A stretch of 64,000 nt of DNA from Betaproteobacteria bacterium RIFCSPLOWO2_02_FULL_67_26 (GTDB lineage Bacteria; Pseudomonadota; Gammaproteobacteria; Burkholderiales; SG8-41), in NCBI GenBank assembly GCA_001771935.1, contig MERD01000069.1:6111-70110 (forward strand), written 5' to 3'. How positions within the stretch are numbered: the first letter of the stretch is position 1; every line of letters begins with the position of its first letter. The position numbers were made by a program, and so were the translations under genes. Shown here in pieces: positions 11,234 through 28,827 of the stretch. The notes beneath the pieces were generated by a model. That model was not told the DNA's origin. It ran no database searches and saw only the letters and a list, made by a program, of their open reading frames with translations.

Positions 11234-12010
11234 ATGGATTTCGCCGCCACCATTCGAACCGGATTCACGCGCTGGCAGGCGTCGGGGCTGCACCTGCTGA
11301 TCAGCGCGATCATCGCCGCAGCCGTGCTTACGGTCATGCTCGGCGTGTGGTATCCGCGCCCGCTGTTCGAGGCGCAGGGTGGCATGGGCCTGGTGTTCAT
11401 CCTCGTCGGGGTGGACGTGGTGATCGGGCCGTTGATCACGCTCGTCATTTTCAAGTCCGGCAAGCCCGGCCTCAAATTTGACCTGGCGGTGATCGCGGCA
11501 TTGCAGCTCGCCGCCCTGATCTACGGCGGCACCGTCGTGTTCGCGGCGCGGCCGGTTTTCCTCGTGCTGGTCAAGGACCAGTTCGAGGTGGTGACGGCGG
11601 CGGAGCTGCATCCGAAGTGGCTGGAAGAGGCACGGCGGCCCGAGTTCCGCGCGCTGCCGGTGAGCGGCCCGGTCCTGGTGATGCTGGAGCAGCCGGGCGA
11701 CGAAACGGAACGCCAGGCCATCATCCAATCCGCCCTGGCCGGGGAGCGGGACGCGCAGCATTTCACGAAGTACTACGTTCCGTATCCGGAGCGTGCGCGC
11801 GCAGCGCTCTCCAACGCGCTCCCGGTCGAGACGGTGCGGCGGCGCTATGCGGAGACGGCACGGGTGATCGACGCCTATCTCGCGAGCTCCGGGAGGAAGG
11901 ACACGGATGTGCGCTATTTCGCCATGCGCACGCGCTACGAATGGATTGCGGTGCTGGTGGATGCAAGAACCGGCGACATCGTGAATATGCTGCTGGTCCC
12001 CGACTCGTGA
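11234..12010 (+). CDS. TfpX/TfpZ-like type IV pilin accessory membrane protein
   Basis: About 258 aa. The N-terminal region (WQASGLHLLISAIIAAAVL..WYPRPLFEAQGG..VDVVIGPLITLVIFKSGKPGLKFDL) matches my memory of the TfpX/TfpZ/FimB family. Alternative starts at 11201 (TTG) and 11231 (GTG). Confidence 0.5.
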   Translation: MDFAATIRTGFTRWQASGLHLLISAIIAAAVLTVMLGVWYPRPLFEAQGGMGLVFILVGVDVVIGPLITLVIFKSGKPGLKFDLAVIAALQLAALIYGGTVVFAARPVFLVLVKDQFEVVTAAELHPKWLEEARRPEFRALPVSGPVLVMLEQPGDETERQAIIQSALAGERDAQHFTKYYVPYPERARAALSNALPVETVRRRYAETARVIDAYLASSGRKDTDVRYFAMRTRYEWIAVLVDARTGDIVNMLLVPDS

Positions 12011-12017
12011 CCGGCCG

Positions 12018-14702
<2,685 letters not shown>

Positions 14703-14843: not shown

Positions 14844-15308
14844 ATGATGACCGATCGGGTCATCTTCGTCTGCACGATCGTCGTGGCGGCGGTCTATCTC
14901 TATGCCACGACCCTGATCCCCACGCTCGAGATCGGCGACCCGCTGGGGCCGAAGGCGTTCCCGCGCCTGCTCGGTTTCTGCCTGCTGCTCGCGGCCGCGA
15001 TGCTGTTTGTCGAGATGTGGAAGGATCGCCAGACAGCGGCGGCGGCGCCGGCCCCTTCCGGCCCGCGAGACGTGCGTCATCTCTGGATCCTGGCCGGCGT
15101 GGTCGTGTGGAGCGGCCTGTTCTACGCCGTCCTGGAGAGGCTGGGATACGTGGTTGCCTCGGCCATCTACCTGCTGGCACTGATGGCATGGTTCAACCGG
15201 GGCAAGTGGCGGGCGAACGTCGTGACCGCGGTGCTGTTCAGCGTGTCGAGCTACGCCCTGTTCGCCAAGCTCGAGGTCAATCTGCCCAAGGGCATCCTCC
15301 CGTTTTGA
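14844..15308 (+). CDS. tctB: Tripartite tricarboxylate transporter small membrane subunit TctB (set 1)
   Basis: 154-aa, 4-TM protein immediately upstream of tctA. It is the last part of track ORF 13956..15308. The ATG at 14844 follows GGAGGAGAAA. Confidence 0.7.
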   Translation: MMTDRVIFVCTIVVAAVYLYATTLIPTLEIGDPLGPKAFPRLLGFCLLLAAAMLFVEMWKDRQTAAAAPAPSGPRDVRHLWILAGVVVWSGLFYAVLERLGYVVASAIYLLALMAWFNRGKWRANVVTAVLFSVSSYALFAKLEVNLPKGILPF

Positions 15309-15333
15309 GGGCGCGGCGGCGCGGAATTGATCG

Positions 15334-16848
15334 ATGGACACGCTGACGCACATCCTCAACGGCTTCTCGGTCTGCCTGCAGCCGATCAACCTGTGGTACA
15401 CGTTCGTCGGGGTTTTTCTCGGCACGATCATCGGCGTGCTGCCGGGCATCGGGCCGTCGGCCGGGATCGCGCTGCTGATCCCGGTGACCTACGGCATGAA
15501 TCCGACGTCCGCCCTGATCATGATGGCGGGCATCTACTACGGCACGAAGTACGGCGGATCAACGACGGCGATCCTCATCAATACGCCGGGCGAGTCCGCG
15601 TCGGTCATGACGGCGATCGACGGCTACCAGATGGCAAAAAAAGGCCGTGGCGGCGCGGCGCTCGCCATCTCGGCCGTCGGTTCGTTCATTGCCGGCACGC
15701 TGGGCGTCGTGGGACTCACGCTGTTCGCGATTCCACTCACCAGCATGGCCTTGAAATTCGGCCCGGCCGAATACTTCATGCTCATGTTCTTCGCGATGAC
15801 GGCGGTTTCCACGCTCGCCGGCAAATCGCCCGCGAAGGCGGTGATCGCGACCCTGATCGGCCTGATGATCTCCACCATCGGCATCGACCTGCAGAGCGGC
15901 CAGCCGCGCTACACGATGGGCGTCCCCGAACTGCAGGACGGCGTCGGCTTCGTGATCGCGGTGGTGGGCCTGTTCGCCATCGCCGAGGTCTTTTCGCAGA
16001 TGGAGGACATGACCAAGGGCGTGCGGCCGGAAATCATCAAGCTGCAGGGCAGGCTCTGGTTTACCCGCGAGGAATGGAATCTTTCCGTGCGTCCCATCCT
16101 GCGCGGCGGCGTGATCGGATTCATCATCGGCGTGCTGCCCGGCGCCGGCGGCACGATCGCCTCGATCATGAGCTACGTTTGGGAGAAGCGCCTGTCCAAG
16201 CACCCGGAGCGGTTCGGCCACGGCGCCATCGAGGGGGTGGCCGGTCCCGAGGCCGCCAACAACTCCGATACGGCCGGAGCGCTGGTGCCTTTGCTGACGC
16301 TCGGCATCCCCGGCGGCGGGGCGACGGCCGTCATGCTGGGCGCTTTCATCATGTACGGCATACAGCCCGGGCCGCTCCTGTTCCAGAACCGGCCGGACCT
16401 GGTGTGGGGCCTGGTGGACAGCATGTATGTCGGCAACATCATGCTGCTGATCCTGAATCTGCCGCTCATCGGGCTGTTCGTGCGGCTGCTCTACATTCCG
16501 GGCGGCATGCTGATGGCGCTCATCATGGCGATATCCACCATCGGCATCTACGCCATCAACGGCAATCCCGTGGAGCTCTATTTCGGGCTGCTGTTCGGAG
16601 TCATGGGCTACGTGTTCCGCAAGGTCGACATACCGGTCGCGCCGCTGGTGCTGTCGCTGGTGCTGGGCGGCATCATGGAGCAGTCGTTCCGGCAGGCGAT
16701 GACGATTTCCGGGGCGAATCCCGGGATCTTCGTCGGCAGCACGATCTGCATCGTGCTGCTGGCCCTGTCCGTGCTTTCGGTGCTGCTGCCGTTCATGCTG
16801 CCGCGGCTGAAGTCCTGGCGCGAAGGTTCGGCGAACGCCGAGGCATAG
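15334..16848 (+). CDS. tctA: Tripartite tricarboxylate transporter large permease TctA (set 1)
   Basis: 504 aa. N-terminus MDTLTHILNGFSVCLQPINLWYTFVGVFLGTIIGVLPGIGP and the GEEYPG-type region PGESASV are typical of the TctA family. Confidence 0.9.
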   Translation: MDTLTHILNGFSVCLQPINLWYTFVGVFLGTIIGVLPGIGPSAGIALLIPVTYGMNPTSALIMMAGIYYGTKYGGSTTAILINTPGESASVMTAIDGYQMAKKGRGGAALAISAVGSFIAGTLGVVGLTLFAIPLTSMALKFGPAEYFMLMFFAMTAVSTLAGKSPAKAVIATLIGLMISTIGIDLQSGQPRYTMGVPELQDGVGFVIAVVGLFAIAEVFSQMEDMTKGVRPEIIKLQGRLWFTREEWNLSVRPILRGGVIGFIIGVLPGAGGTIASIMSYVWEKRLSKHPERFGHGAIEGVAGPEAANNSDTAGALVPLLTLGIPGGGATAVMLGAFIMYGIQPGPLLFQNRPDLVWGLVDSMYVGNIMLLILNLPLIGLFVRLLYIPGGMLMALIMAISTIGIYAINGNPVELYFGLLFGVMGYVFRKVDIPVAPLVLSLVLGGIMEQSFRQAMTISGANPGIFVGSTICIVLLALSVLSVLLPFMLPRLKSWREGSANAEA

Positions 16849-16942
16849 CGCCGGTGATGCGTGACCGGCGACCGGGGAGCCTGAACCGGGATTCGCGCGC
16901 TACACGCGATGGCTTGCAGAGAATGGTGAATGGAGAGAACGA

Positions 16943-17995
16943 ATGGGCAAGCGGGTTGCATATTTGGGGGTGGGGGCGGTCGGCGGCTACGTTGCCGGCC
17001 ATCTGACGCGCGCGGGCCATGACGTGACGCTGATCGATCCGTGGCCGGAGCATGTCGAGGCCATGCGCGGGAACGGGATCGAGCTCTCCGGCACGACGCC
17101 GGCGGAGCGCCACACGGTGCCGGTCAGCGCGATGCACGTCACCGACGTGCAAAACCTCGTGAAGCAGAAGCCGATCGATATTGCGTTCGTGAGCGTCAAA
17201 TCGTACGACACCGAGTGGGCAACGCTCCTGCTGCGCCCGTACCTCGCGCCCGACGGTTTCATCGTCTCGCTCCAGAACTGCATCAACGAGGAGCGCATCG
17301 CCTCGCACGTGGGATGGGGCCGCACCGTGGGCTGCATCGCCAGCCTGATCGCCGTGGAGCTCTACGCGCCCGGCAAGATCAAGCGCACCGTGCCGATGGG
17401 CGGCGACCGGCACACCGTGTTTCGCGTCGGTGAGCCGCACGGACGGGTCACGCGGCGCGCGGAGGAGGTCGCGGAGATGCTGCGCGCGGTGGACAGCGCC
17501 AAGGTCACCACCAACCTGTGGGGCGAGCGCTGGTCCAAGCTCGTGATCAACTCGATGCGCAACGGCCTGTCCGCGGCGACCGGCCTCTACGGCAACCAGC
17601 GCGACACGACGGAGGGCCCGCGCGGGTTGTCGATCCGGCTGGGGAGCGAGGCGGTGCGGGTGGGCCAGGCCCTGGGCTTCCCGCTCGAGAGAATGCTGGG
17701 GATGGACGCCGAGACGCTCGCGCGTGCCGGCGAAGGGCACCCGGACGCGTTGACCGAGATCACCAACGTCTTGATCGAAGGCGCGAAAAAGCGCTCGGAC
17801 GACCAGCGCCCGTCGATGGCGCAGGACATCGCCAAGGGGCGCCGCACCGAAACCGACTTCATCAACGGCTTCGTCGCCGCGCAGGGTGCCGGGATCGGCG
17901 TGCCCGCGCCGACGCACGTCCGGATGAACGAGGCCGTAAAGCGCGTCGAGCGGGGGGACGCGAAGCCCTCGCCGGAACTGATCTGCGGCTGGTGA
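16943..17995 (+). CDS. ApbA/PanE-family 2-dehydropantoate (2-oxoacid) reductase-like oxidoreductase
   Basis: 350 aa. N-terminal Rossmann motif YLGVGAVGGYVAGHL. C-terminal PanE-like region (KLVINSMRNG, SMAQDIAKGRRTETDFINGFV). Confidence 0.75.
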   Translation: MGKRVAYLGVGAVGGYVAGHLTRAGHDVTLIDPWPEHVEAMRGNGIELSGTTPAERHTVPVSAMHVTDVQNLVKQKPIDIAFVSVKSYDTEWATLLLRPYLAPDGFIVSLQNCINEERIASHVGWGRTVGCIASLIAVELYAPGKIKRTVPMGGDRHTVFRVGEPHGRVTRRAEEVAEMLRAVDSAKVTTNLWGERWSKLVINSMRNGLSAATGLYGNQRDTTEGPRGLSIRLGSEAVRVGQALGFPLERMLGMDAETLARAGEGHPDALTEITNVLIEGAKKRSDDQRPSMAQDIAKGRRTETDFINGFVAAQGAGIGVPAPTHVRMNEAVKRVERGDAKPSPELICGW

Positions 17996-18099
17996 TATCA
18001 TTGATCCGCCGCGCCTGAACGGTGCTCGAACAAGCCGCCGGCCGGCCGGCACGCCAGTACGGAAGTCCGGAACAACGACTTGAAAACCAGGAGGAAACC

Positions 18100-19110
18100 A
18101 TGAGAAATGCGCTCGCGTTCATTGCGGCCTTCACGCTGTTGGCTGTCGCACCACGGGCAGGGGTGGCGCAGCCTTTGTCGTTCGAAGGCAAGACGATCAC
18201 GATCGTGTGCGGGTTCAAGGCCGGCGGCGGCTACGATCGCACCGCCCGCATCCTGGCCCGGCACCTCCCGAAGTACCTGCCGGGCACGCCCAATGTCATC
18301 GTGCAGAACATGCCGGGCGCCAACAGCATCACCGCGGCCAACCACGTCTACAACGTGGCGAAGCCGGACGGCCTGACCATCGGCACCTTCAACCGCAACC
18401 TGGTGCTCGCGCAGCTCACCAACGTGAGGGGGGTGAAATTCGACCAGACCAAGTTCGCGTGGATCGGATCGGCGGCGAGCGAGTCGACGGTCCTCGCGAT
18501 CCGCAGCGACCTGCCGTACAAGACCTTCGACGACCTGAAGAAATCGGGCAAGACCCTGGTGATCGGAGCGACCGGGCCGGGGGCCAATACCTACGACTTT
18601 CCGCTGCTGCTGAAGGAGCTGCTCGGGGTCGACCTCAAGATCGTGAGCGGCTATTCCAGCAGCTCGGACATCATGCTGGCGATCGAGCGCAAGGAGGTGG
18701 ACGCGCGGGCCGGCTCCTACACGTCGCTGCGCCCCTTCATCGACCGCAACCTGGTGCATCCGGTGATTCGGGCCAAGGCCATCGAGGCCGGGATCGAGCA
18801 GCTGCCGGTCGACGAGAATCTCGCGCCCAATGCCCGCGCCAGGGCGGTCATGGCGCTGCGCTCCGCGCCCGAAGTGGTCGGCCGGCCGTACGTGATGACG
18901 CCGGGCACGCCCGATGACATCGTCAAGGCGATGCGGGACGCGTTCAGCAAGGCCATCAAGGATCCGGAGCTCGTCGCCGAGGCGAAGAAGGGCAAGATGG
19001 AGCTCGAGTTCATGCCCGGGGACGAGGCGCTCAGGATCGTGAAAGAGGTCCTGGCGCAGCCGAAGGAAATCGTGGACGACTTCCGCAAGTACATCAAGTT
19101 CGGCGAATGA
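18100..19110 (+). CDS. tctC: TctC/Bug-like periplasmic substrate-binding protein (divergent)
   Basis: Signal peptide MRNALAFIAAFTLLAVAPRAGVA. Bug-like layout (TIVCGFKAGGGYDRTARILARHL, VIVQNMPGANSITAANHV, AKPDGLTIG). Sits next to tctA/tctB set 2. Start preceded by AGGAGGAAA. Confidence 0.55.
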   Translation: MRNALAFIAAFTLLAVAPRAGVAQPLSFEGKTITIVCGFKAGGGYDRTARILARHLPKYLPGTPNVIVQNMPGANSITAANHVYNVAKPDGLTIGTFNRNLVLAQLTNVRGVKFDQTKFAWIGSAASESTVLAIRSDLPYKTFDDLKKSGKTLVIGATGPGANTYDFPLLLKELLGVDLKIVSGYSSSSDIMLAIERKEVDARAGSYTSLRPFIDRNLVHPVIRAKAIEAGIEQLPVDENLAPNARARAVMALRSAPEVVGRPYVMTPGTPDDIVKAMRDAFSKAIKDPELVAEAKKGKMELEFMPGDEALRIVKEVLAQPKEIVDDFRKYIKFGE

Positions 19111-19154
19111 GCGGCGCGCCGGAGTGGTTTCGACGCCTTCCGGGCCAGTCGGCG

Positions 19155-19181
19155 AAAAAGGGGGCCTTGCCCCCTTTTTTT
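19155..19181 (+). terminator. Rho-independent (potentially bidirectional) terminator between tctC-like and tctA2
   Basis: AAAAAGGGGGC-CTT-GCCCCCTTTTTTT. A perfect GC stem is flanked by A and T runs, 45 nt after the tctC-like stop. Confidence 0.6.
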
Positions 19182-19198
19182 GAGCCTCCACCGGCCGC

Positions 19199-20710
19199 AT
19201 GATCGACGCCCTGCTCGAAGGCCTGCTCCTCGTCCTGCAGTGGAAGGCGTTCGCCTTCATGCTGCTCGGGATCGCGCTCGGCTTCTGGGTCGGCCTGCTG
19301 CCCGGGCTGGGCGGCGTCACCACGCTGGCGCTGATGCTTCCCTTCATCTACGCGATGAGCCCGGTCGAGGGGTTCGCGTTCCTGCTGGGGATGCATTCGG
19401 TGGTCGCCACGACCGGGGACATCACGTCGGTGCTCTTCGGCATCCCCGGAGAAGGCACCACCGCGGCGACGATCCTCGACGGGCACGCCATGGCGAAGAA
19501 AGGGCAGGCCGGGCGGGCGCTGGGCGCGGCGCTCGCCAGCTCGCTCGTCGGCGCGCTGGTCGGCGCGCTCGCGCTGGCGCTCGCGATCCCGGTGGTGCGT
19601 CCTCTGGTCCTCGCCTTCGGCTCGCCCGAGCTCTTCATGATCGCCATCGTCGGCATTGCGTTCATCGCGTCGCTCAGCGCGCAGGGCGCGCGCGGAATGC
19701 TGCGCGGGTTCCTCGCGGGCGGGCTCGGCCTGATGGTCGCCACGATCGGGCAGGACCCGCAGGCCGGTGTCGCGCGCTATACCTTCGACTCCCTTTACCT
19801 CTGGAGCGGCCTCGACCTCGTGCCGGTGCTGATCGGCATCTTCGCCATCCCCGAGATCGTCGACCTCATCGTGCGCGGCGGCTCCATCGCGGGGGAGATG
19901 CCCGGGGGCCGCCTGAACCAGGGCGCGCTGGAAGGCGTCAAGGACACGTTCCGCCACTTCTGGCTCACGATCCGCTGCAGCCTGATCGGCACCTTCATCG
20001 GCATCATGCCGGGGCTCGGTGGCGCGGTGGCCCAGTGGCTCGCGTACGGACACGCCGTGCAAAGCGCGCGCACCGTGGAAGAGCGGGAGGGATTCGGCAA
20101 GGGAGACGTGCGCGGCGTCCTCGGCCCGGGCGCGGCCAACAACTCCAAGGAGGGCGGCGCGCTCATCCCGACCGTCGCATTCGGCGTGCCCGGCAGTTCC
20201 TCCATGGCGATCCTGCTCGGCGGCTTCTTCCTGCTCGGGCTGGTGCCCGGTCCCGACATGCTGACCACGCACCTGGCGGTCACGTTCTCGATGGTGTGGA
20301 CGATCGTGCTGTCGAACGTCATCACGGTCGTCGCGTGCTTCCTGTTCCTCAACCATCTCGCCCGGCTGACCGTCGTGCGCGGCCATTTCCTGGTCCCGGT
20401 GATCCTGGTGCTGGTCTTCATCGGGAGCTATACGGCCAATAATCACTACGGCGACGTGGTCCTGATGCTGTTCTTCGGCGTGGTCGGCTACCTGATGGTC
20501 GCCGGCGGCTGGCCGCGGGCGCCGTTCGTGCTCGGCCTGGTCCTGGGCAAGATCGTCGAGAACAACCTTTACATCTCGGTTGCGCGCTACGAATTCGCCT
20601 GGCTGACCCGGCCCATCGTGCTGGTCCTCCTGGCGCTGGCGGTCGCGGTGATTCTCTACCCCCTGATCCAGGCGCGGCGTTCACGGTCGAGGAGCAACGC
20701 GCATGCATAG
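19199..20710 (+). CDS. tctA: Tripartite tricarboxylate transporter large permease TctA (set 2)
   Basis: 503 aa. TctA-family N-terminus (MIDALLEGLLLVLQWKAFAFMLLGIALGFWVGLLPGLGG) and motif FGIPGEGTTAA. Confidence 0.9.
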   Translation: MIDALLEGLLLVLQWKAFAFMLLGIALGFWVGLLPGLGGVTTLALMLPFIYAMSPVEGFAFLLGMHSVVATTGDITSVLFGIPGEGTTAATILDGHAMAKKGQAGRALGAALASSLVGALVGALALALAIPVVRPLVLAFGSPELFMIAIVGIAFIASLSAQGARGMLRGFLAGGLGLMVATIGQDPQAGVARYTFDSLYLWSGLDLVPVLIGIFAIPEIVDLIVRGGSIAGEMPGGRLNQGALEGVKDTFRHFWLTIRCSLIGTFIGIMPGLGGAVAQWLAYGHAVQSARTVEEREGFGKGDVRGVLGPGAANNSKEGGALIPTVAFGVPGSSSMAILLGGFFLLGLVPGPDMLTTHLAVTFSMVWTIVLSNVITVVACFLFLNHLARLTVVRGHFLVPVILVLVFIGSYTANNHYGDVVLMLFFGVVGYLMVAGGWPRAPFVLGLVLGKIVENNLYISVARYEFAWLTRPIVLVLLALAVAVILYPLIQARRSRSRSNAHA

Positions 20711-21176
20711 CAAGGCTTCGCTGATCCTCGGCGCCGGCATCGTGCTCGTCTCGGGAGCGGCCATCGTCATCGCGCTGGACTGGCCGTTGAAGGCCAGGCT
20801 GTTTCCGCTGGCGATCGGAATTCCGGTCTTCTGCATGGCCATGGCCGAGGTCCTGTGGGGGCTGCTCGACCCCGCGGCCCGAAGCGAGGCGATGGAATTC
20901 CGCCTCTCCGACGAGGCGCAGGGTGGGGTCGCGGTGCGGCGAACGCTGCTCGCCGTCGCCTGGATGGCCGGGTTCTCCGCAGCGATCGTCCTGCTGGGAT
21001 TCCCGTCCGCCATTGCGTTGCTCGTATTGTGCTATCTGCGGCTCCAGGGGCGGGAAGGCTGGATCGTTTCTGGTATCTTTACCCTCGTGGTCTGGGCGCT
21101 CTTCTACACGGTCTTCGACCGGCTCCTCCACCTGCCGTTTCCCGCGGGGCTGGTTCAGGGGTGGCTTGGCCTTTAA
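20703..21176 (+). CDS. tctB: TctB-like small membrane subunit (set 2), encoded after tctA
   Basis: 157 aa, about 4 TM. Overlaps the tctA2 stop by 8 nt. Assigned mainly from size, topology and context. Confidence 0.55.
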   Translation: MHSKASLILGAGIVLVSGAAIVIALDWPLKARLFPLAIGIPVFCMAMAEVLWGLLDPAARSEAMEFRLSDEAQGGVAVRRTLLAVAWMAGFSAAIVLLGFPSAIALLVLCYLRLQGREGWIVSGIFTLVVWALFYTVFDRLLHLPFPAGLVQGWLGL

Positions 21177-21182
21177 GCCGAC

Positions 21183-22055
21183 ATGATTCCCGCGAAGCGC
21201 CTGCGCTATTCCGCCATCGTTGACCGACCGCCGCTCGTGCTGCCGGAAAAAGCCCGCGTCGTGATCTGGCCGGTGGTGAACGTCGAGGTGTGGGACATAT
21301 CGCGCCCGATGCCGCGGCAGGCGCTGCCGCCGCCCACCGGCATCCCGCATCAGCCGGACGTGCCGAACTGGGGCTGGCACGAGTACGGCATGCGCGTTGG
21401 CTTCTGGCGCCAGAAGGCGCTGCTCGACGAGCTGAAGATCGTGCCTTCACTCTCGATCAATGCGCGCGTCTGTCTCGACTACCCGCGCGTGGCCCGGGCG
21501 GCGCGCGACGCCGGCTGGGAATTCATGGGCCACTCCTACGACCAGCGCCCGGTCCACACCGAGCCCGACCAGGCGGGGATGATCCGCCAGTCGGTGAAGG
21601 TGATACGGGAGTTCACCGGCAAGCGACCGGTGGGCTGGATGGGCCCGGGGCTGACCGAGACACTCGATACCCCCGAGCTGCTGGCGGGCGCCGGCATCCG
21701 GTACATCGCCGACTGGGTGATCGATGACGAGCCGTGCACGATACGCACCCGGGGCGGCAACCTCGTGACGATGCCTTATTCGATGGAGCTGAACGACATC
21801 GCGATGATGGTGGTGCAGCACCATCCGGCCCGGGAGTGGGAAACGCGGTGCATGGACTACTTCGACCGCGTCTACCGCGAGGGGAGGCAACGCGCCAAGG
21901 TGATGGCGATCGCCGTGCACCCCTACATCACGGGCGTCCCGCACCGGATCAAGTATCTCGAAAACGTGTTCCGGCGGCTGAGGAAGCGGAAAGACGTGCT
22001 GTTCTGGACCGGCGAGAGGATTCTCGACTGGTATCTCGGGAGCCGCAAGCGGTGA
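21183..22055 (+). CDS. Polysaccharide deacetylase-fold protein (PuuE/allantoinase-like subgroup)
   Basis: 290 aa. The pattern VVIWPVVNVEVWD..HEYGMRVGFWR..WEFMGHSYDQ resembles the PuuE-like divergent deacetylase family. Recognised by eye. Confidence 0.6.
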   Translation: MIPAKRLRYSAIVDRPPLVLPEKARVVIWPVVNVEVWDISRPMPRQALPPPTGIPHQPDVPNWGWHEYGMRVGFWRQKALLDELKIVPSLSINARVCLDYPRVARAARDAGWEFMGHSYDQRPVHTEPDQAGMIRQSVKVIREFTGKRPVGWMGPGLTETLDTPELLAGAGIRYIADWVIDDEPCTIRTRGGNLVTMPYSMELNDIAMMVVQHHPAREWETRCMDYFDRVYREGRQRAKVMAIAVHPYITGVPHRIKYLENVFRRLRKRKDVLFWTGERILDWYLGSRKR

Positions 22056-22140
22056 GCCCCGGCGGATCGGATGGAAGTGCCGGAAAGTTACCCTGCGTTG
22101 ATCCAGATCAATCCGGCGCGCCGTCGTTTCCTGCGTTGCC

Positions 22141-22169
22141 TTGACAGCGCCCTGAATTTTTTTGAGAAT
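22141..22169 (+). promoter_or_regulatory. Candidate sigma70 promoter for the synthase / binding-protein-fold gene pair
   Basis: TTGACA (22141-22146), a 17-nt spacer, then GAGAAT (22164-22169). It lies about 45 nt upstream of the 22214 start in a 158-bp gap. Confidence 0.35.
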
Positions 22170-22213
22170 TAACGCCTTACCGCCCCGGTTCACCTAACAC
22201 GCGAGGAGCGCCC

Positions 22214-23449
22214 ATGGCCAAGCAACCCTGGAAAACCGACAACTGGTTCGTGAGCCAGTGGAATTACGCGGACGAAGTGCGCAAGGATTTCAAGTTCGCC
22301 AAGCAGATCAAGATCCACGACATCACCTTGCGCGACGGCGAGCAGCAAACCGGGATCATCCTCAGCAAGGACGACAAGATCCGCATCGCCGAAGCGCTGG
22401 CGGAAGCCGGAGTGCATCGCATCGAGGCCGGCATGCCGATCGTTTCGCCCTCGGATGCCGAGGCCATCAAGGAGATCGCCCGGCGCAATCTCGGCCCGCA
22501 GATCTTTGCGTTTTCGCGCTGCATGAAAGAGGACGTCCAGCGCGCGATCGACACCGGCGTCAACGGCGTGGTGATGGAGATCCCGTCCAGCCAGCACATG
22601 GTGGACCTCGCCTACAAGTGGCCGATGGAGAAGGCGATAGAGACCTCGATCGAGGCAACCTTGTTTGCCAAGAAGAACGGGCTGGAAGTCGTGTTCTTCC
22701 CCATCGATTTCTCCCGCTCGGAAATGAACTGGGTGCTGAACCTGATCAACCGGGTCGCGACCGAGGGCCACATGGACGCGCTGGCCCTGGTGGACACGTT
22801 CGGGGTGGTGTCGCCCCACGCGATGCAGTACTTCGTGCGCGAGGTCAAGAAGCGCATCAACAAGCGCCTCGAGGCGCACTTCCACCAGGACTTCGGGATG
22901 GGTGTCGCGAACACCATCATGGCCGCCGCCGAAGGCGTCGAGGTGCTGCACACGACCGTGCTCGGCGTCGGCGAGCGTGCCGGCAATACGCCGATGGAAG
23001 AAACCGTCATGGCATTGCTGACGATGTACGGCGTGGACGTCGGGCTCAACTACAGCAAGCTCACGCCGCTCGCCAACCTGGTGCAGAAGCTCACCGGGGT
23101 GGACGTGCCTTCGAACAAGCCCGTCGTGGGCAGGCAGCTCTATCAGATCGAGTCCGGGATCATCGCGAGCTGGTACAAGAACTGCGGCGAGGAAAACGCG
23201 ACCGAACTGTTTCCCGTGCGCGCGCAGTTCGTCGGGCAGCCGCCCGCCGAGGTGGTGATGGGCAAGGGCAGCGGCATCGATTCGGTCAAGGCCTGGCTCG
23301 CGCAGATGGGTATCGAGGCGAGCGACGACGAGGCGCTCAAGATGACCGCTGCGGTCAAGGGCTACTCGCTGAAGAACAAGCGGCTGCTGACCGAAACCGA
23401 GTTCAGCAAGATCGCCAGGGACGTCATCGCGGAGCGCGCGGCGGCGTAA
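22214..23449 (+). CDS. DRE-TIM metallolyase of the LeuA/NifV/CimA clade (2-alkylmalate / homocitrate / Re-citrate synthase-like), short form
   Basis: 411 aa. Signature IHDITLRDGEQQTG followed by AEAGVHRIEAGMP. HxH-type region EAHFHQDFGMGVANT. No LeuA-type C-terminal regulatory domain. Confidence 0.75.
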   Translation: MAKQPWKTDNWFVSQWNYADEVRKDFKFAKQIKIHDITLRDGEQQTGIILSKDDKIRIAEALAEAGVHRIEAGMPIVSPSDAEAIKEIARRNLGPQIFAFSRCMKEDVQRAIDTGVNGVVMEIPSSQHMVDLAYKWPMEKAIETSIEATLFAKKNGLEVVFFPIDFSRSEMNWVLNLINRVATEGHMDALALVDTFGVVSPHAMQYFVREVKKRINKRLEAHFHQDFGMGVANTIMAAAEGVEVLHTTVLGVGERAGNTPMEETVMALLTMYGVDVGLNYSKLTPLANLVQKLTGVDVPSNKPVVGRQLYQIESGIIASWYKNCGEENATELFPVRAQFVGQPPAEVVMGKGSGIDSVKAWLAQMGIEASDDEALKMTAAVKGYSLKNKRLLTETEFSKIARDVIAERAAA

Positions 23450-23484
23450 CGCGGATCTTTTGGAATGTGGAGGAGAACACTGCC

Positions 23485-24357
23485 ATGACGCTTGTCATCA
23501 AGCCGGTTGTAAGGATCGCCCCGAATAACCAGGTATTCGATCTGCCGGTGATCGTCGGCATCGAGGAAGGATTGTTCGCCAGGGCCGGGCTCGACGTCAG
23601 TTTTTCGGCGAGCCATGCGGACCGGGAGCGGGACAGCGCCGAGAAGCCGATCCTGTCGCGGCTCAAGGAGCAGCTGTTCGAATGCGGCTCGGCCGACAGC
23701 TACAACGTCTGCGAGTGGGCGAGCATCGACCGGCTGGAGCGCGGCCAGCGCGGCGGCAGCATCGCGGCCCTGCGCGCCGCGGTCGCGGCCCAGGCGATCC
23801 TGACGTTCGACGAGCGGCTCCAGACGCCGCGCGACATGGCCGATGTTCCCGTCGTGGTGCAGGAGCTCACCGGCTCGCACTACACGACGCTGCAGATGCT
23901 GGAGAGCGCGGTTGGCCGCGAGCACGTCAATATCGTGAATGGCGGATTGCCGCAGATGCGCTGGGCGGGCCTCAAGAGCGGCGCTTACCGCGCGGTGACG
24001 GTGATGGAGCCGTTCATCAGCCTCGGGCTCAAGGAAGGCGCTCACATCATCGCCTCCTCGTTTTACCGGGGCGGCGAAGTGGTGGCGCCGGAACTGACGC
24101 CGGAGCAGCGCAAGGCCTATTACGACGCCGAGAACCAGGCCGTGGATCTCATCAACGCGGACTTCTACAAGTACGCGCATCACGTCACCGCGCACGCCAA
24201 GGACGCGTTGAAGCCCAACGAGCTGCTGCGCGCATTCGTCCGCTACAAGCACGTTGACTACTACGATCCCGCCCTGTTCGGCCGGGCCTACGACTGGATG
24301 AAGGCGCGGGGAATGACCGAGGGCCAGAGCCAGCACGCCGCCCTGGTGGTGGGCTGA
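23485..24357 (+). CDS. Leaderless periplasmic-binding-protein-fold (NMT1/THI5/SsuA-like) protein, function unknown
   Basis: 290 aa from the last part of track ORF 22258..24357. The ATG at 23485 follows GGAGGAGAA. No signal peptide. The N-terminus VRIAPNNQVFDLPVIVGIEEGLFARAGLDV resembles NMT1-like domains (eye only). Confidence 0.45.
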   Translation: MTLVIKPVVRIAPNNQVFDLPVIVGIEEGLFARAGLDVSFSASHADRERDSAEKPILSRLKEQLFECGSADSYNVCEWASIDRLERGQRGGSIAALRAAVAAQAILTFDERLQTPRDMADVPVVVQELTGSHYTTLQMLESAVGREHVNIVNGGLPQMRWAGLKSGAYRAVTVMEPFISLGLKEGAHIIASSFYRGGEVVAPELTPEQRKAYYDAENQAVDLINADFYKYAHHVTAHAKDALKPNELLRAFVRYKHVDYYDPALFGRAYDWMKARGMTEGQSQHAALVVG

Positions 24358-24361
24358 GCGC

Positions 24362-25465
24362 TCAATCGGGCCGCTGCAAGTCCGCGATTACCGCGTTCAG
24401 GAAGCGCCCGGCCTCGCCGCCCGTCACCGCGCGGTGGTCGAAGGTGAGCGACAGCGGCAGCACGCGGCGCACCGCCGGCTTGTCGTCCACCACCACCACC
24501 TGCTTCGCGATCCGCCCGGCGCCGACTATCGCCACCGTGGGGGGCAGGACGACCGGGGAAGCGTAGCGCCCCGCGATCGAGCCGTAATTGGAGAGCGTGA
24601 TGCTGTTCGCGCGCAGCTCTTCCGGCGGCACCTTGCGCGCGCGGGCAGCGGCGATCAGTTTCTCCAGTGCGCCCTTCAGCTCGTCCGCGCCGCGCTCGCC
24701 GCAGTTGCGCAGCACCGGGACGAGCAGGCCGTCCGGCGTATCCACTGCAATGCCGATGTCGATCCGTTTCAGCACCCAGCGGCCGATTTTCTCGCTGTCG
24801 TACCAGGCGTTCAGCGCCGGCTCGGCCCCGCAGCCCGCCACCAGGGCCCGGATCAGCCGGAGCATGGTGAAGCTGCCCGCCGGCCACGACTCGATGTCGG
24901 CATCGTCCATGATGGTCGCGGACGCCACCTCGGCGGTCGCGAGCTCCATGTTCTGCGCCATCGCGCGCCGCACGCCCCGCATGAGCTCGATCGGCCCGAT
25001 TTCGGCGAGGATGCGCGCGGCGCGCTGAACGTCGCTCGCGGTGATCAGCCCGTCGGCGCCGGTGGGCGTGACCATCGCGAGGTCCACGGTGAGCTTGCGC
25101 GCGAGCGCGCGCACCGCCGGCGTCGCCTTGATCCCGCCGCTCACCGGCGCGGGTCCGGCGGGCGCCTCCGCCACCACCTTCTGGCCGACCTCCACCTTGC
25201 CCACTACCGTGCCCGAGTCCTGGCTGTCGCTTTCCCCCTCGTAGGCGACGAGGGGCGCGCCGATGTGCGCGATGTCCCCGGCCTTGCCGTAGAGCCTGGC
25301 GATCTTCCCGGCATAGGGGGCGGGAATATCCACCACCGCCTTGGCGGTTTCCACCGATACCATCGGCTGGTCGGACTTCACTTCATCGCCCACCGCGACG
25401 TGCCACTTCACGATCTCGGCCTCCTGCAGCCCTTCACCCAGATCCGGCAGCTTGAATATCTTCAT
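24362..25465 (-). CDS. Dihydrolipoamide acyltransferase (E2) of a 2-oxoacid dehydrogenase complex
   Basis: 367 aa. One lipoyl domain (VSVETAKAVVDIPAP), an E3/E1-binding domain (ATPAVRALARKL) and a catalytic domain (LSLTFDHRAVTGGEAGRFL). Confidence 0.9.
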   Translation of the reverse strand: MKIFKLPDLGEGLQEAEIVKWHVAVGDEVKSDQPMVSVETAKAVVDIPAPYAGKIARLYGKAGDIAHIGAPLVAYEGESDSQDSGTVVGKVEVGQKVVAEAPAGPAPVSGGIKATPAVRALARKLTVDLAMVTPTGADGLITASDVQRAARILAEIGPIELMRGVRRAMAQNMELATAEVASATIMDDADIESWPAGSFTMLRLIRALVAGCGAEPALNAWYDSEKIGRWVLKRIDIGIAVDTPDGLLVPVLRNCGERGADELKGALEKLIAAARARKVPPEELRANSITLSNYGSIAGRYASPVVLPPTVAIVGAGRIAKQVVVVDDKPAVRRVLPLSLTFDHRAVTGGEAGRFLNAVIADLQRPD

Positions 25466-25471
25466 AAGAAA

Positions 25472-25572
25472 TAGACAGGATTAACAAGATTTACAGGATG
25501 AGTTCAATACGAAAACAGCTCGGTTGGTCCTGGTATCGGTTTCAATCCTGTTAATCATGTTAATCCTGTCCA
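25472..25572. repeat. MITE-like AT-rich element with terminal inverted repeats between the E1beta and E2 genes
   Basis: GACAGGATTAACAAGATT (25474-25491) matches the reverse complement of AATCATGTTAATCCTGTC (25553-25570) at 17 of 18 positions. A nested ACAGGAT / ATCCTGT pair lies at 25493-25499 and 25545-25551. Composition is strikingly AT-rich against GC-rich flanks. Confidence 0.5.
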
Positions 25573-25577
25573 TTTTT

Positions 25578-26561
25578 TCAGGCGAAGGCGAGCGCCTTCT
25601 TCACCGCGGCAATGATCCGCGCCTTGCCCGGCATGTACCGATGCTCGAGTCGGGAATACGGCACCACCACGTCGTAGCCGGTGACGCGCTGCACCGGCGC
25701 CAGCAGGTTGAGCAGCGCTTCCTCCGCGAGACCGGCGGCGATCTCGGACGCATAGCTGCAGGTGCGCGCCGCCTCCGTCACAACCACGCAGCGCCCGGTC
25801 CTGGCAACGGAGCCCAGTATCGTGTCGAGGTCGAGCGGCTTCAGCGTCGCGACGTCGACCACCTCCGCAGACACGCCTTGCTCGGCGAGTTCGTCCGCCG
25901 CCGCCAGCGTTTCGGGCACCATCGGGCCCCAGGTGACCAGGGTGACGTCGGCGCCCTCGCGCAGCGTGAAGCAGGCATCCAATGGCGCCGCCTCGCCGTT
26001 GTCCGCGACCTCTTCCTTGAACAGGCGGTAGAGGCGGGTCGGCTCCAGGAACACCACGGGGTCGGGATCGCGGATCGCCGCCAGCAGCAGCCCGTAGGCG
26101 CGCCGCGGGGAGGACGGATAGACCACGCGGATGCCCGGGATGTGGGCGAACATGGATTCGGGGCTTTCGGAATGGTGCTCCGGTGCATGGATACCCGCTC
26201 CGCACGGCGTCCTCACTACCATCGGGCAGGAGAGCCGGCCGCGCGTGCGGTGCCGCATGCGGCCGGCATGATTGAGGATCTGGTCGATCGTGGAGTAGGC
26301 GAAGCCGGCGAACTGGATCTCGGCAACCGGTTTCAGGCCCTCGGCGGCCATCCCGATCGCCATCCCGGCGATCAGCGCCTCGGCGAGCGGGGTATCGAGA
26401 ACCCGGCCCGGCCCGAAGCGCCCGGCGAGCCCCAGCGTCGCGCGAAACACGCCGCCGTCCACGCCCACGTCCTCGCCCAGCACGACGACGCTCTCGTCGC
26501 GCTCCATTTCGCGCGCCAGGGCGAGGTTGATGGCTTCAACGAGGGTGATTTGAGCCATCAC
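25578..26561 (-). CDS. 2-oxoacid dehydrogenase E1 component beta subunit
   Basis: 327 aa. MAQITLVEAINLALAREMERDESVVVLGEDVG and FAGFAYSTIDQILNHA are typical of the transketolase-like E1beta. Overlaps the E1alpha stop by 4 nt. Confidence 0.9.
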   Translation of the reverse strand: MMAQITLVEAINLALAREMERDESVVVLGEDVGVDGGVFRATLGLAGRFGPGRVLDTPLAEALIAGMAIGMAAEGLKPVAEIQFAGFAYSTIDQILNHAGRMRHRTRGRLSCPMVVRTPCGAGIHAPEHHSESPESMFAHIPGIRVVYPSSPRRAYGLLLAAIRDPDPVVFLEPTRLYRLFKEEVADNGEAAPLDACFTLREGADVTLVTWGPMVPETLAAADELAEQGVSAEVVDVATLKPLDLDTILGSVARTGRCVVVTEAARTCSYASEIAAGLAEEALLNLLAPVQRVTGYDVVVPYSRLEHRYMPGKARIIAAVKKALAFA

Positions 26562-27622
26562 TCATCACCTAGCGCCGCTGCGCGCTGGCGCACGAATGCC
26601 GCTGGCAGTTGCGCGTAGAGGTGGTCGAACATCTGTTCCGCGGTCGGCGGCGGCGTGTCGAGGTAGGCCTGCGCCGCGGCCTGCACCTGCTCGTTGCATT
26701 CCCGGAGCAGCGCGTCTTCCTTTGCCTTGTCCCAGGCACTGTCGGCCATGAGGTAGCTGCGCAGGCGCAGGATGGGCTCGAGCTTCCACGCCTCGGCGAC
26801 TTCATCCGGGCCGCGGTAGCGCGAGGCGTCGTCCGCGGTGGTGTGGTCGGAGAGGCGGTAGGTGAGGGCCTCGATCAGCGTCGGGCCGCCGCCCGCCCGC
26901 GCTTTCGCCAGCGCCCGGTCCATGGCGTGCCGCACGGCGACTACGTCGTTGCCGTCGACCTGGATGCCCTCCATTCCGGCCGCGATGGCTTTCTGCGCCA
27001 GCGTCTGCGCTGCGCTCTGCGTTTTGCGCGGCACGGAGATCGCCCACTGATTGTTGGTGACGGCGAACACGAGCGGGAGGCGCCAGCCGCCGGCGGCGTT
27101 GAGGCCCTCGTAGAAATCGCCCTTGGATGTCGCGCCATCGCCCAGCGCGCAGACGGCGACGCGCCTCTCGCGGCGCAGCGTCATGGCATAAGCGACGCCG
27201 ACGGCATGGGTGACGTGCGCGGCAATCGTGACGCAGATGGGGAAATCCCGGCGCGGTCCGGCGTAGTCGCATCCGCGCTCGTCGCCGCCCCAATAGAGGA
27301 ACAGCTCCTTGAGGCTCACGCCGCGCATCAGCTGCACGCCGTTCTCGCGGTAGGTTGGGAGGAAAACGTCGTCCCGCTCCATGGCGGAGCCGACCCCCGC
27401 ATTGACCGCCTCGTGCCCGAGCAGCGAGGCGAACGTGCCGAGCTGCCCGGTGCGCTGCAGCGCGATGGCCTTGGCGTCGTAGGCGCGCATCAGCACCATC
27501 CAGCGGTACAGCGCCACGAGGTTGCCCGGGTCGCGCGCGAACTCCGGCAGCGGCTCGACGGCCTTGCCGTGCGGGTCGAGAAACTGCGAGTAGTGGACTT
27601 CGAATTTCGCGACGATGGACAC
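26558..27622 (-). CDS. 2-oxoacid dehydrogenase E1 component alpha subunit (TPP-dependent)
   Basis: 354 aa with a GTG start. TPP motif GDGATSKGDFYEGLNAAG..NNQWAIS. PdhA/BCKDH E1alpha-like. Confidence 0.9.
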   Translation of the reverse strand: MSIVAKFEVHYSQFLDPHGKAVEPLPEFARDPGNLVALYRWMVLMRAYDAKAIALQRTGQLGTFASLLGHEAVNAGVGSAMERDDVFLPTYRENGVQLMRGVSLKELFLYWGGDERGCDYAGPRRDFPICVTIAAHVTHAVGVAYAMTLRRERRVAVCALGDGATSKGDFYEGLNAAGGWRLPLVFAVTNNQWAISVPRKTQSAAQTLAQKAIAAGMEGIQVDGNDVVAVRHAMDRALAKARAGGGPTLIEALTYRLSDHTTADDASRYRGPDEVAEAWKLEPILRLRSYLMADSAWDKAKEDALLRECNEQVQAAAQAYLDTPPPTAEQMFDHLYAQLPAAFVRQRAAALGDE

Positions 27623-27643
27623 GCGGGCCGAAGAGGAGTTTGT

Positions 27644-27656
27644 GCTAGATTCTAGC
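27644..27656. promoter_or_regulatory. Perfect 13-bp palindrome in a divergent promoter region (candidate operator)
   Basis: GCTAGAtTCTAGC lies in the 94-bp gap between the E1alpha start (27622, minus) and the LLM oxidoreductase start (27717, plus). Confidence 0.3.
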
Positions 27657-27716
27657 CGTTATTCCCAAGACTGCCATGTCCGGCCGACCGCTGACAACTG
27701 ATTCAGGCAAGCTCCA

Positions 27717-28820
27717 ATGAAGCTCGGCTTCTTCACCATGCCCATCCACCCCGTCGAGCGCAACTATACGCAGACGCTCAAGGAGGATCGCGAAGCCGTG
27801 CTGTTGGCCGACCGGCTCGGCTACTGCGAGGCCTACATCGGCGAACACATCACCGATTCATGCGAGACGATCCCTTCGTGCCTGACCTTCATCGCAAGCG
27901 TCGCGCATGACACCAGGCAGATCCGGCTGGGCAGCGGAACCGTCAACCTTCCGAACAACCATCCCGTGCAGGTGGCCTCGCACGTGGCAATGGTGGACCA
28001 CATGCTGGAGGGACGCTTCATCTTCGGCATCGGGCCCGGCGGATTGCGTTCAGACATGGAGGTGTGCGGCAATCTCGATGCCGACCGCAATGCGATGTTC
28101 GTGGAGTCGATAGACCAGATACTGGCGATCTGGGCGGGCGACGCCCCGTACAATCTGAAGGGGCAATTCTGGAACATATCCACGGAGCGCACGCTGATCC
28201 GGGAGGTCGGCCAGGGCCTGATCCTGAAGCCGTACCAGAAGCCGCACCCCCCGATCGTCGTGACGGTCGTGGTGCCTCATTCCAAGGGACTCATGGCCGC
28301 CGCCGCGCGCGGCTGGCAGCCGATCACGGCAAACTTCCTGCCGCCGGTGTGGGCGGCGACGCACTGGCCGATGCACGTGAAGGGGTGCGCGCAGGCGGGG
28401 CGGCGAGCCGACCCGGCCGACTGGCGCGTTTGCCGCAGCATTTTCGTGGCCGACGACGACGCCGCGGCGCGCCGCTACGGCAAGAGCGTCAATGGCCCGT
28501 ACGGCAAGTACTTTCTGAACCTGCGGACCAAGCGTCTCTCGCGCGGGGCGGCCGACGTGTTCAAGCACGATCTCGCGGTGACGGACGAAGCAGTCACCAT
28601 AGACTACATGCTGGAGCACATGGCGATTGCGGGTAGCGTCAACAGCGTGGTGGACCAGCTGCTCGCTTTCCGCGAGACCGTGGGTGATTTCGGCACGCTG
28701 CTCTACTGCGGCCACGACTGGGCGGATCCGCAGCTCGCGCGCCGCTCGATGGAGTTGATGGCGGAACAAGTCATGCCCGCCGTCAACGCGGCCATCGGCT
28801 CTTCCTCCCGCGCCGCGTGA
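27717..28820 (+). CDS. Luciferase-like (LLM class) flavin-dependent oxidoreductase/monooxygenase
   Basis: 367 aa. MKLGFFTMPIHP..EAYIGEHIT..RLGSGTVNLPNNHPVQVA is typical of the LLM family (LimB-like subgroup by eye). Confidence 0.8.
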   Translation: MKLGFFTMPIHPVERNYTQTLKEDREAVLLADRLGYCEAYIGEHITDSCETIPSCLTFIASVAHDTRQIRLGSGTVNLPNNHPVQVASHVAMVDHMLEGRFIFGIGPGGLRSDMEVCGNLDADRNAMFVESIDQILAIWAGDAPYNLKGQFWNISTERTLIREVGQGLILKPYQKPHPPIVVTVVVPHSKGLMAAAARGWQPITANFLPPVWAATHWPMHVKGCAQAGRRADPADWRVCRSIFVADDDAAARRYGKSVNGPYGKYFLNLRTKRLSRGAADVFKHDLAVTDEAVTIDYMLEHMAIAGSVNSVVDQLLAFRETVGDFGTLLYCGHDWADPQLARRSMELMAEQVMPAVNAAIGSSSRAA

Positions 28821-28827
28821 CTGCGTT

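Follow-up and report, generated by a model that had tools for sequence, protein, structure and literature searches.

We analyzed a 64,000-nucleotide stretch (the window) of the metagenome-assembled genome (MAG) Betaproteobacteria bacterium RIFCSPLOWO2_02_FULL_67_26, and in particular a block of genes at positions 14844-28820 that encodes transporter subunits, a hydrolase of the CE4 fold, a LeuA-like protein, and most of a 2-oxoacid dehydrogenase complex. Modules are assembled in this block as a mosaic, and it is not a single fixed pathway of 13 genes. Our preferred reading, which we hold tentatively, is a catabolic island of variable modules that occupies a fixed chromosomal site; the block would be one of its variants, and the CE4 protein and the LeuA-like protein its core. 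Judging from its sequence, the LeuA-like protein (22214-23449, forward strand; GenBank OGA23331.1), which we call SYN, probably cleaves a carbon-carbon bond in an undescribed pathway. The observed part of this model comprises the gene content, the pattern of conservation, and the absence from SYN of the residues that Claisen chemistry needs. No part of the block is a new fold, and its transporter, its dehydrogenase complex, and the nearby aconitases are ordinary. What appears to be new is the pairing of a CE4 protein with a non-canonical LeuA-like protein, and that this "synthase" seems to belong to a large, mis-annotated clade without the machinery of a synthase.

Because the window is about 66% G+C, raw lists of open reading frames are noisy. 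Genes were chosen by GC content at the third codon position, with one gene per stretch, and were identified with Pfam and NCBIfam profiles and their curated cutoffs; selected proteins were also matched to sequences in PDB. For comparison, we scanned one genome per species. More than 500 of these genomes have a relative of SYN, and we kept the best 80. We added nine metagenomic loci, and we report neighborhood counts over 90 loci. (Compared loci are numbered L002 and so on.)

Loss of the Claisen residues from SYN

SYN has an HMGL-like domain (PF00682; 217 bits), and its closest matches in PDB are homocitrate and isopropylmalate synthases (6ktq, 3rmj, 6e1j, 3ivs, and 2ztj; E ~1e-47). Like the Claisen enzymes of the DRE-TIM family (LeuA, NifV/Lys20, CimA, and methylthioalkylmalate synthase or MAMS), it has an HMGL-like TIM barrel with a post-barrel subdomain, the Arg and the metal-binding Asp within a TLRDGEQ motif, the HxH and Asn ligands, and the Thr for 2-oxoacid binding. 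An earlier note on this DNA, made from the sequence alone, had described SYN as a Claisen-type synthase or lyase and had suggested comparing it to LeuA, CimA, NifV, and homocitrate synthase (HCS). But SYN scores below every NCBIfam cutoff: 314 bits versus 485 for TIGR02090 (the best model), 282 versus 463 for nifV, and 192 versus 599 for leuA_bact. Unlike the Claisen enzymes, it also has an extra conserved N-terminal segment (PWKTDNWFVSxWN) and has no C-terminal regulatory domain.

We then examined the catalytic residues by aligning SYN to 6e1j, 3rmj, and 6ktq. (6e1j is a MAMS, and its chain numbering agrees with the published R89, D90, Q93, H388, and Y399.) SYN retains R40, D41, Q44, T195, H222, H224, and N258, and with them its ligands for the metal and for the 2-oxoacid; R40, D41, H222, H224, and N258 are invariant in all 80 genomes. 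In contrast, the Glu of the xED motif (Glu227 in MAMS) is replaced by Ile164 in every one of the 80 genomes, which span at least four phyla. Similarly, both His positions of the HxSGIH motif are Ile or Val (positions 312 and 317) in 80 of 80 genomes, with I312 and I317 in the window's SYN; the alignment has high posterior probabilities at these columns. The position of the stacking Tyr (Tyr399 in MAMS) corresponds to position 328 in SYN, which varies across genomes (N, H, Y, or F). In MAMS, His388 is the general base that enolises acetyl-CoA, and the variants H388A/D/E/Q, E227A/D, and Y399S had no detectable activity (PMC11532901). Since the Glu and the His that are needed in MAMS have been replaced throughout, the description of SYN as a Claisen-type synthase is not supported.

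Other positions suggest what kind of substrate SYN might bind. F100, V160, and F162 are bulky hydrophobic residues at positions that in canonical synthases line the pocket for the substrate. Phe100 and Val160 correspond to His72 and Arg133 of Thermus HCS, which bind the distal carboxylate, and Phe162 corresponds to Tyr144 of CimA. Because of these three residues, the sequence suggests that the pocket and the substrate are small or hydrophobic.

SYN is not an isolated oddity, as we found by searching 1.84 billion cluster representatives. Across phyla, its relatives are 66-96% identical, and over 200 positions are invariant (alignment A1). Among the best 150 representatives (P0241-P0390, which are the representatives of 50%-identity clusters that are nearest to SYN), 114 are full-length; 83 of these lack all three catalytic residues, and 24 have at least two of the three. 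Most of the 83 share a Trp-rich N-terminal extension (PWKTDxWxVSPxN). In a neighbor-joining tree, one split holds all 24 canonical sequences together with a single non-canonical one, so SYN lies in a separate clade from the canonical enzymes. Cultured Rhodobacterales, Pararhizobium, and spirochaete MAGs carry a more diverged non-canonical clade (similar to P0289, which is 37% identical), whose genes adjoin GntR/FCD regulators and TRAP/TAXI importers; this context is catabolic and not biosynthetic. Among cultured bacteria, Rhodoplanes elegans DSM 11907 carries SYN, and Pararhizobium sp. IMCC21322 carries the diverged clade.

Databases name members of SYN's clade as 2-isopropylmalate, homocitrate, or citramalate synthase, as LeuA family protein, or as pyruvate carboxyltransferase. 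Our search of the literature on DRE-TIM members and on this combination of genes found nothing that describes the clade. Comparing SYN to 72,556 plasmids with tblastn gave only canonical relatives of nifV, leuA, and cimA, at 35% identity or less; therefore, no annotated catabolic plasmid carries the clade. If the clade does lack synthase chemistry, then thousands of annotations are wrong, and so are any metabolic models that were built on them for Burkholderiales, Xanthobacteraceae, and Acidobacteria, groups that are abundant in soil. Its size and its very strong conservation make the clade well suited to enzyme discovery. Leads towards the substrate come from the CE4 protein as a constant partner, from the importers of the tripartite tricarboxylate transporter (TTT) or TRAP types, and from the GntR/FCD regulators in relatives.

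Another known group for comparison, in the same superfamily, is that of the 4-hydroxy-2-oxovalerate aldolases DmpG, BphI, and MhpE. They share the fold of SYN and handle the pyruvate enolate with a metal and an Arg, and they cleave carbon-carbon bonds independently of CoA, which is the chemistry that we propose for SYN. FAH-family genes are also frequent neighbors of SYN. FAH-fold hydratases and HMGL-fold pyruvate aldolases are a known pairing in meta-cleavage pathways (MhpD or DmpE with DmpG or MhpE), so given SYN's FAH partners, a lyase is a natural idea. But the similarity to these aldolases is weak (73 bits for TIGR03217, versus a cutoff of 286), and the catalytic His after the RD motif of DmpG is a Gln in SYN. 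Also, there is no acylating aldehyde dehydrogenase as a partner, and the neighboring FAH genes are of the FAHD1/HpaG type and not the MhpD type.

A broader proposal is that the clade consists of CoA-independent DRE-TIM metallolyases, a new reaction class derived from the Claisen synthases, in which the Glu, His, and Tyr were swapped for hydrophobic residues, and that together with the PuuE-like CE4 partner it forms a route, so far undescribed and common among bacteria of soil and groundwater, for the catabolism of a carboxylate with a ring or an amide. We regard this as possible but, taken as a whole, doubtful. Under this proposal, the reaction may also be a decarboxylative condensation instead of a carbon-carbon cleavage.

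A modular island at a fixed chromosomal site

The full order of the block recurs in four or five other uncultured Burkholderiales species (L002, L003, L005, L007, and L010), with proteins that are 79-96% identical. This removes a concern raised in the earlier note, that the genes might never be co-localized in other genomes. (Because the carriers are related lineages, some of this conservation is inherited synteny.) Across about 20 related islands, the constant pair is the CE4 gene followed by SYN, while the remaining modules swap. The CE4 gene adjoins SYN in 21 of the 90 loci, and the two stay joined through rearrangement, even in L012 and L014, where the arrangement is inverted.

The CE4 protein (21183-22055, forward strand) is PuuE-like. 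It matches PuuE in PDB (3cl6, E = 9e-18), which is its top match there; the top NCBIfam match is also to the PuuE allantoinase family (TIGR03212), and the alignment spans residues 65-276. (Polysacc_deac_1 from Pfam matches at 21.9 bits, which is below the cutoff.) PuuE allantoinase is a metal-independent cyclic amidohydrolase with the CE4 fold. However, the CE4 protein scores only 93 bits with TIGR03212, versus a cutoff of 424, so it is not an orthologue of the allantoinase. There are no genes of the ureide pathway close by, and in the Burkholderiales islands, the CE4 gene is always paired with SYN.

In this lineage of uncultured Burkholderiales, the site of the island is fixed. On one side are ispZ/msrB/glcD-like genes, and on the other side are (acnA)-prpD-(prpC)-mdh and then sdhC. 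(The window has no prpC between prpD and mdh; the relatives L082 and L087 do have one.) The surroundings are core chromosome, with ilvD, purL, ispZ, genes of the tricarboxylic acid (TCA) cycle, dnaX, and recR. A fixed site beside TCA-cycle genes collects interchangeable modules for the catabolism of carboxylates.

The left end of the island may have an acetolactate-synthase-like enzyme, of the type that uses thiamine pyrophosphate, together with tctB-tctA. Other optional modules are a gene similar to isocitrate dehydrogenase (ICDH) or homoisocitrate dehydrogenase, which is found in relatives only; a PanE-like or FAH-family gene; LeuC-LeuD, which is likewise found in relatives only and passes the NCBIfam cutoffs for LeuC and LeuD; and a reverse-strand gene for either TctC or an amidohydrolase_2 protein. 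The right part may have the convergent genes for E2, E1beta, and E1alpha of a dehydrogenase complex, with a luciferase-like (LLM) gene further right.

The slot after SYN is also variable. It is occupied by a gene for an orphan 290-amino-acid protein in the window and by an enolase-superfamily dehydratase or a fusion of metallo-beta-lactamase (MBL) and rhodanese domains in sister islands. The MBL-rhodanese fusion is found in about 10 loci (L082:11320-12360, L087:11506-12546, L088:11238-12311, L002, L005, L006, L008, L009, and L016) and has weak similarity to persulfide dioxygenase and to Blh, a sulfurtransferase/dioxygenase. Its sequence hints that these variants might handle a substrate or a by-product that contains sulfur.

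Outside of the Burkholderiales, SYN is 66-80% identical in Xanthobacteraceae, in Bryobacteraceae and other Acidobacteria, and in Anaerolineae, and its neighbors differ. In Alphaproteobacteria, FAH-family genes flank SYN. In Acidobacteria, SYN follows a D-2-hydroxyacid dehydrogenase (2-Hacid_dh) and an M24 protein, a protein with PPDK_N and swivel domains, or both. Across the 90 loci, the immediate partners of SYN are 2-Hacid_dh (35 loci), FAH (29), and CE4 (21).

The acidobacterial protein with PPDK_N is a side observation of its own. At L076:12627-13913 (reverse strand), one gene upstream of 2-Hacid_dh and SYN, is a 428-amino-acid protein with equivalents in 17 acidobacterial and other loci (such as L041-L046 and L054). 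Two domains of phosphoenolpyruvate (PEP) synthase or pyruvate phosphate dikinase are present in it, PPDK_N (which binds ATP) and the phospho-His swivel, without a barrel to bind pyruvate or PEP. That SYN, itself a metal-dependent barrel that binds 2-oxoacids, might be the missing substrate domain is pure speculation.

The same 17 loci, in which SYN lies near a PPDK_N and swivel protein that lacks its own pyruvate/PEP-binding barrel, would fit with SYN being a dead pseudoenzyme: a ligand-binding or scaffold subunit, for example for the complex of E1 and E2 or, in Acidobacteria, for the truncated protein similar to PEP synthase. The canonical catalytic residues are gone while the ligand and metal sites are kept, and the block has no regulator, which also fits. 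We nevertheless consider a pseudoenzyme very unlikely. Conservation of 66-96% identity across phyla is extreme; the complete metal site is kept, which is typical of an active enzyme; SYN has no DNA-binding domain; and the clade is large and has diversified as enzyme families do.

How the modules vary also bears on whether the block encodes a single pathway. In L088, genes of toxin-antitoxin or defence type (HigB/HTH, Fic, AbiEii, and ParE/Phd) lie between E1alpha and prpD (L088:15920-19937), an interval that in the window holds the LLM gene and two aconitases; this insertion site behaves as a plasticity zone. If the whole site is prone to recombination, then the block might be three or four unrelated operons side by side (TTT and PanE; CE4, SYN, and the orphan; an accessory pyruvate dehydrogenase; and LLM). 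Among related genomes, modules are gained and lost independently: E1 and E2 are missing from L020, L082, and L087, and the second TTT system and the orphan gene are confined to islands of the window's type (over the 90 loci). Insertions at the same site are prfC in L020, L023, and L089 and, in L088, genes for toxin-antitoxin, Fic, and AbiEii proteins. There are promoter-like sites ahead of SYN and ahead of E1alpha, and E1alpha itself is of the plain pyruvate dehydrogenase (PDH) type. But the CE4 gene and SYN stay together even when rearranged. E1 and E2 are near SYN in 11 of the 90 loci, only where CE4 is present, and they are always convergent and immediately downstream. The genes are tightly spaced, with overlaps and short gaps, and every module handles carboxylates or 2-oxoacids. 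We consider it somewhat unlikely that the operons are unrelated.

A proposed route and its alternatives

Our preferred reading would run as follows. An organic acid would be taken up by one TTT system or by two. The CE4 enzyme would then open or deacylate an amide, lactam, or lactone function. SYN would chelate a small 2-oxoacid on its metal and could not enolise acetyl-CoA; instead, it would perform a CoA-free retro-aldol or decarboxylative cleavage, which would yield a small 2-oxoacid (probably pyruvate) and a second fragment. The PanE-like reductase might interconvert a 2-oxo and a 2-hydroxy acid. Finally, the PDH-type E1alpha, E1beta, and E2, together with LpdA, would convert a 2-oxoacid to an acyl-CoA, which would enter the TCA cycle and the methylcitrate cycle, whose genes are adjacent.

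Several observations weigh against this scheme. First, LeuC-LeuD and the ICDH-like gene adjoin SYN in nine related loci, and these neighbors fit alkylmalate chemistry better than a simple aldolase. Second, other conserved residues (E122, H128, or E313) or the N-terminal extension could supply a base and so permit Claisen activity. Third, the islands come from related lineages, so their co-localization is in part due to descent, and because the modules vary independently, they may not form one pathway. Fourth, the orphan 290-amino-acid protein has no place in the proposed flow.

The earlier note had proposed a different scheme, in which an imported, substituted di- or tricarboxylate passes through an alkylmalate or alkylcitrate, with SYN as a Claisen synthase (or acting in reverse) and the AcnA-type aconitases as isomerases. 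Because sister islands have LeuC, LeuD, and a gene similar to ICDH or homoisocitrate dehydrogenase in the region of the SYN operon, logic of the alkylmalate type is not absurd for this family of islands. There is also precedent for pairing an HCS-like synthase with an AcnA-type aconitase, in the biosynthesis of FR-900098 and phosphinothricin. The window's three AcnA paralogues are each intact, and they are old, with 58-65% identity to each other. The first, acnA1, is again at the left border in L087, where it is 86% identical, and the tandem of acnA2 and acnA3 is found again in L020.

Even so, we think that this scheme is improbable. SYN lacks the Glu and the general-base His in all 80 genomes, and E227A and H388A inactivate MAMS (PMC11532901). 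The window's variant has neither LeuCD nor a LeuB-like gene. In L007 and L010, an identical block lies directly against prpD with no aconitase adjacent, and in L020 LeuCD occurs along with the AcnA tandem. No such isomerase or dehydrogenase is near SYN (66-80% identical) in Alphaproteobacteria and Acidobacteria. The idea that AcnA replaces LeuCD was rejected because the two occur together in L020 and are both missing beside the block in L007 and L010. What is supported from the earlier scheme is a conserved island for the uptake and conversion of carboxylates; the Claisen step, the aconitases as pathway partners, and the LLM oxygenase as a pathway step are not supported, and the window's block has no isomerase or beta-decarboxylating dehydrogenase. 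(Other specific candidates that we considered were maleate hydratase with D-malate dehydrogenase and the cleavage of homocitrate or of a protocatechuate-derived tricarboxylate (CHA). None of them was supported: the relatives' LeuCD are bona fide LeuCD-type proteins, and the pocket of SYN is hydrophobic.)

Other genes of the block and its flanks

The block has nine genes on the forward strand, then three on the reverse strand, and then one on the forward strand. Every gene that the earlier note had named was recovered by GC content by codon position, Pfam, and NCBIfam, although it had counted 12 genes where there are 13. It had also said that the combination matches no pathway that can be named, and indeed, the key proteins are all below the NCBIfam equivalog cutoffs, except for E1alpha and, in the flanks, the AcnAs. 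As for whether every gene might fall into a characterized group, E1alpha does (it is PDH-type), but SYN is below the cutoffs of all LeuA-type models. Several of the block's proteins are identical to GenBank entries OGA23326-OGA23336, which are from the source MAG and are labeled as pyruvate carboxyltransferase, polysaccharide deacetylase, hypothetical protein, or luciferase.

The genes are tightly packed, with overlaps of 8 nucleotides (tctA2 and tctB2) and 4 nucleotides (E1beta and E1alpha) and intergenic gaps of 6-35 nucleotides. A longer gap of 158 nucleotides precedes SYN and contains a promoter-like TTGACA-17-GAGAAT (22141-22169, forward strand; 10/12 in a consensus scan, which is weak evidence). 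Convergent stop codons are 4 nucleotides apart for the 290-amino-acid gene and E2 (24357-24362) and 7 nucleotides apart for LLM and acnA2 (28820-28828), so separate terminators would not fit, and neither of these convergent ends showed a hairpin that resembles a terminator. The block was said to be regulator-less, and Pfam and NCBIfam did find no transcription factor, sensor, or mobility domain in it. Scans with Rfam and for tRNAs found no RNA element within the block.

The first TTT system consists of tctB1, the small membrane subunit (14844-15308, forward strand; Pfam TctB, 69.8 bits; GGAGGAG ribosome-binding site before ATG 14844), and tctA1, the large membrane subunit (15334-16848, forward strand; Pfam TctA, 546.8 bits). 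tctB1 forms the left end of 12 related islands, and in related islands, orthologues of tctA1 are 72-92% identical. The second system has tctA2 (19199-20710, forward strand; Pfam TctA, 406 bits), which is about 31% identical to tctA1, and tctB2 (20703-21176, forward strand; Pfam TctB, 46 bits).

Just upstream of tctA2 is a sequence-divergent TctC-type periplasmic binding protein (18100-19110, forward strand; Pfam TctC, 54 bits versus a cutoff of 27). Its true start is ATG 18100, which is preceded by AGGAGGAAACC (ribosome-binding site AGGAGG); contig L001 was called with the same start. The N-terminus, MRNALAFIAAFTLLAVAPRAGVAQ, resembles a signal peptide. As in known TTT systems (the citrate transporter TctCBA of Salmonella, or those with the Bug/TphC-type binding proteins of Betaproteobacteria), all three components are present, as two TctA/TctB pairs and one TctC with a signal peptide. 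In contrast to those systems, a single TctC serves as the only one for two membrane pairs, and the block holds no TctC that is cognate to the first pair, TctBA. Its genes run B-A and C-A-B and not C-B-A, the TctC is very divergent (as its score indicates), and there is no TctDE two-component regulator in the block.

Between the two systems is an NAD(P)H-dependent 2-oxoacid reductase of the PanE/ApbA family (16943-17995, forward strand; Pfam ApbA and ApbA_C). It scores 156 bits for the subfamily model TIGR00745, versus a cutoff of 141, but is far below the cutoffs of all equivalog models. Its top match in PDB is 3hwr. In L003, L008, and L082, this gene is replaced or accompanied by an Iso_dh gene.

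The orphan 290-amino-acid protein (23485-24357, forward strand) was identified from its GC content by codon position. It has no signal peptide and no domain match: neither Pfam and NCBIfam (with E up to 5) nor phmmer and profile searches of PDB found any relatives, and hhalign comparisons to a TAXI binding protein and to the block's TctC were negative. An AlphaFold2 model from a shallow alignment had a mean confidence (pLDDT) of 48 and was unusable for a fold search. Conservation within the family is extreme, with over 120 clusters at 87-100% identity and 2845 matches at E<=1e-3. The binding-protein fold that the earlier note had given this protein is putative; the one source that agrees is a label by JGI (NitT/TauT substrate-binding).

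The dehydrogenase genes are E2, a dihydrolipoyl acyltransferase (24362-25465, reverse strand; Pfam Biotin_lipoyl, E3_binding, and 2-oxoacid_dh); E1beta (25578-26561, reverse strand; Pfam Transket_pyr and Transketolase_C; NF006667, 300 bits versus a cutoff of 321); and the PDH-type E1alpha (26558-27622, reverse strand; TIGR03181, 458 bits versus a cutoff of 411). In the translation of E2, ETAKA marks the lipoyl lysine and DHRAVTG the active site. E1alpha is closest in PDB to PDH E1alpha from G. stearothermophilus (4e-63), ahead of branched-chain enzymes. The complex thus resembles the heterotetrameric (alpha2beta2) PDH of Geobacillus and Bacillus: E1alpha passes TIGR03181, E1beta and E2 have the full sets of domains, and the top PDB matches are 1w85 and 3duf. 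It differs in that the operon has no E3, in that E1beta and E2 are below equivalog cutoffs, and in that the complex is an accessory one in a proteobacterium whose window also contains sucAB-lpdA. No E3 gene lies within 14844-28820. As had been noted, lpdA (45840-47261, forward strand; Pfam Pyr_redox_2 and Pyr_redox_dim), downstream of sucA-sucB, is the sole E3 in the window. The island's E2 has an E3-binding domain, and we presume that LpdA, although encoded 17 kb away, serves it in trans.

The last gene of the block encodes an LLM oxidoreductase that depends on flavin or F420 (27717-28820, forward strand; Pfam Bac_luciferase, 145 bits). It reaches no NCBIfam cutoff and matches no specific family. 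We downgraded it as a member of the pathway because in L020, L023, and L089 the island and the LLM gene have prfC between them and because L088, where the toxin-antitoxin, Fic, and AbiEii genes fill the interval from E1alpha to prpD, has no LLM gene. It is probably a peripheral gene of the chromosomal backbone.

The flanks are as had been described, with AcnA paralogue 1 on the left (12018-14702, reverse strand; TIGR01341, 1290 bits) and the tandem paralogues 2 and 3 on the right (28828-31533 and 31557-34244, reverse strand; both above the AcnA cutoffs), followed by PrpD and Mdh and then by sdhCDAB-gltA-sucAB-lpdA. The three AcnAs score 1185-1291 bits for TIGR01341, versus a cutoff of 945, and all have intact Fe-S cysteines and intact catalytic Ser/Arg motifs. 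They lie within 22 kb beside prpD, and the tandem pair is 65% identical. Among the related loci, the acnA1 orthologue is at the left border in L087 only, and a single AcnA is found in L003, L006, L082, and L087. Because the aconitases and the LLM gene are absent or separated in relatives, we view them as neighbors of the island and not as fixed parts of it.

We also made a few minor observations. Between the glcD-like gene and acnA1 is a pilin accessory gene of the TfpX/TfpZ type (11201-12010), which is not there in relatives. The only RNA genes found in the window are for the signal recognition particle RNA (56229-56327, forward strand, 81.6 bits) and tRNA-Ser(GGA) (53897-53988, reverse strand). 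At 51515-53890 is a gene for a 791-amino-acid PilB-like ATPase with GAF, MshEN, and T2SSE domains.

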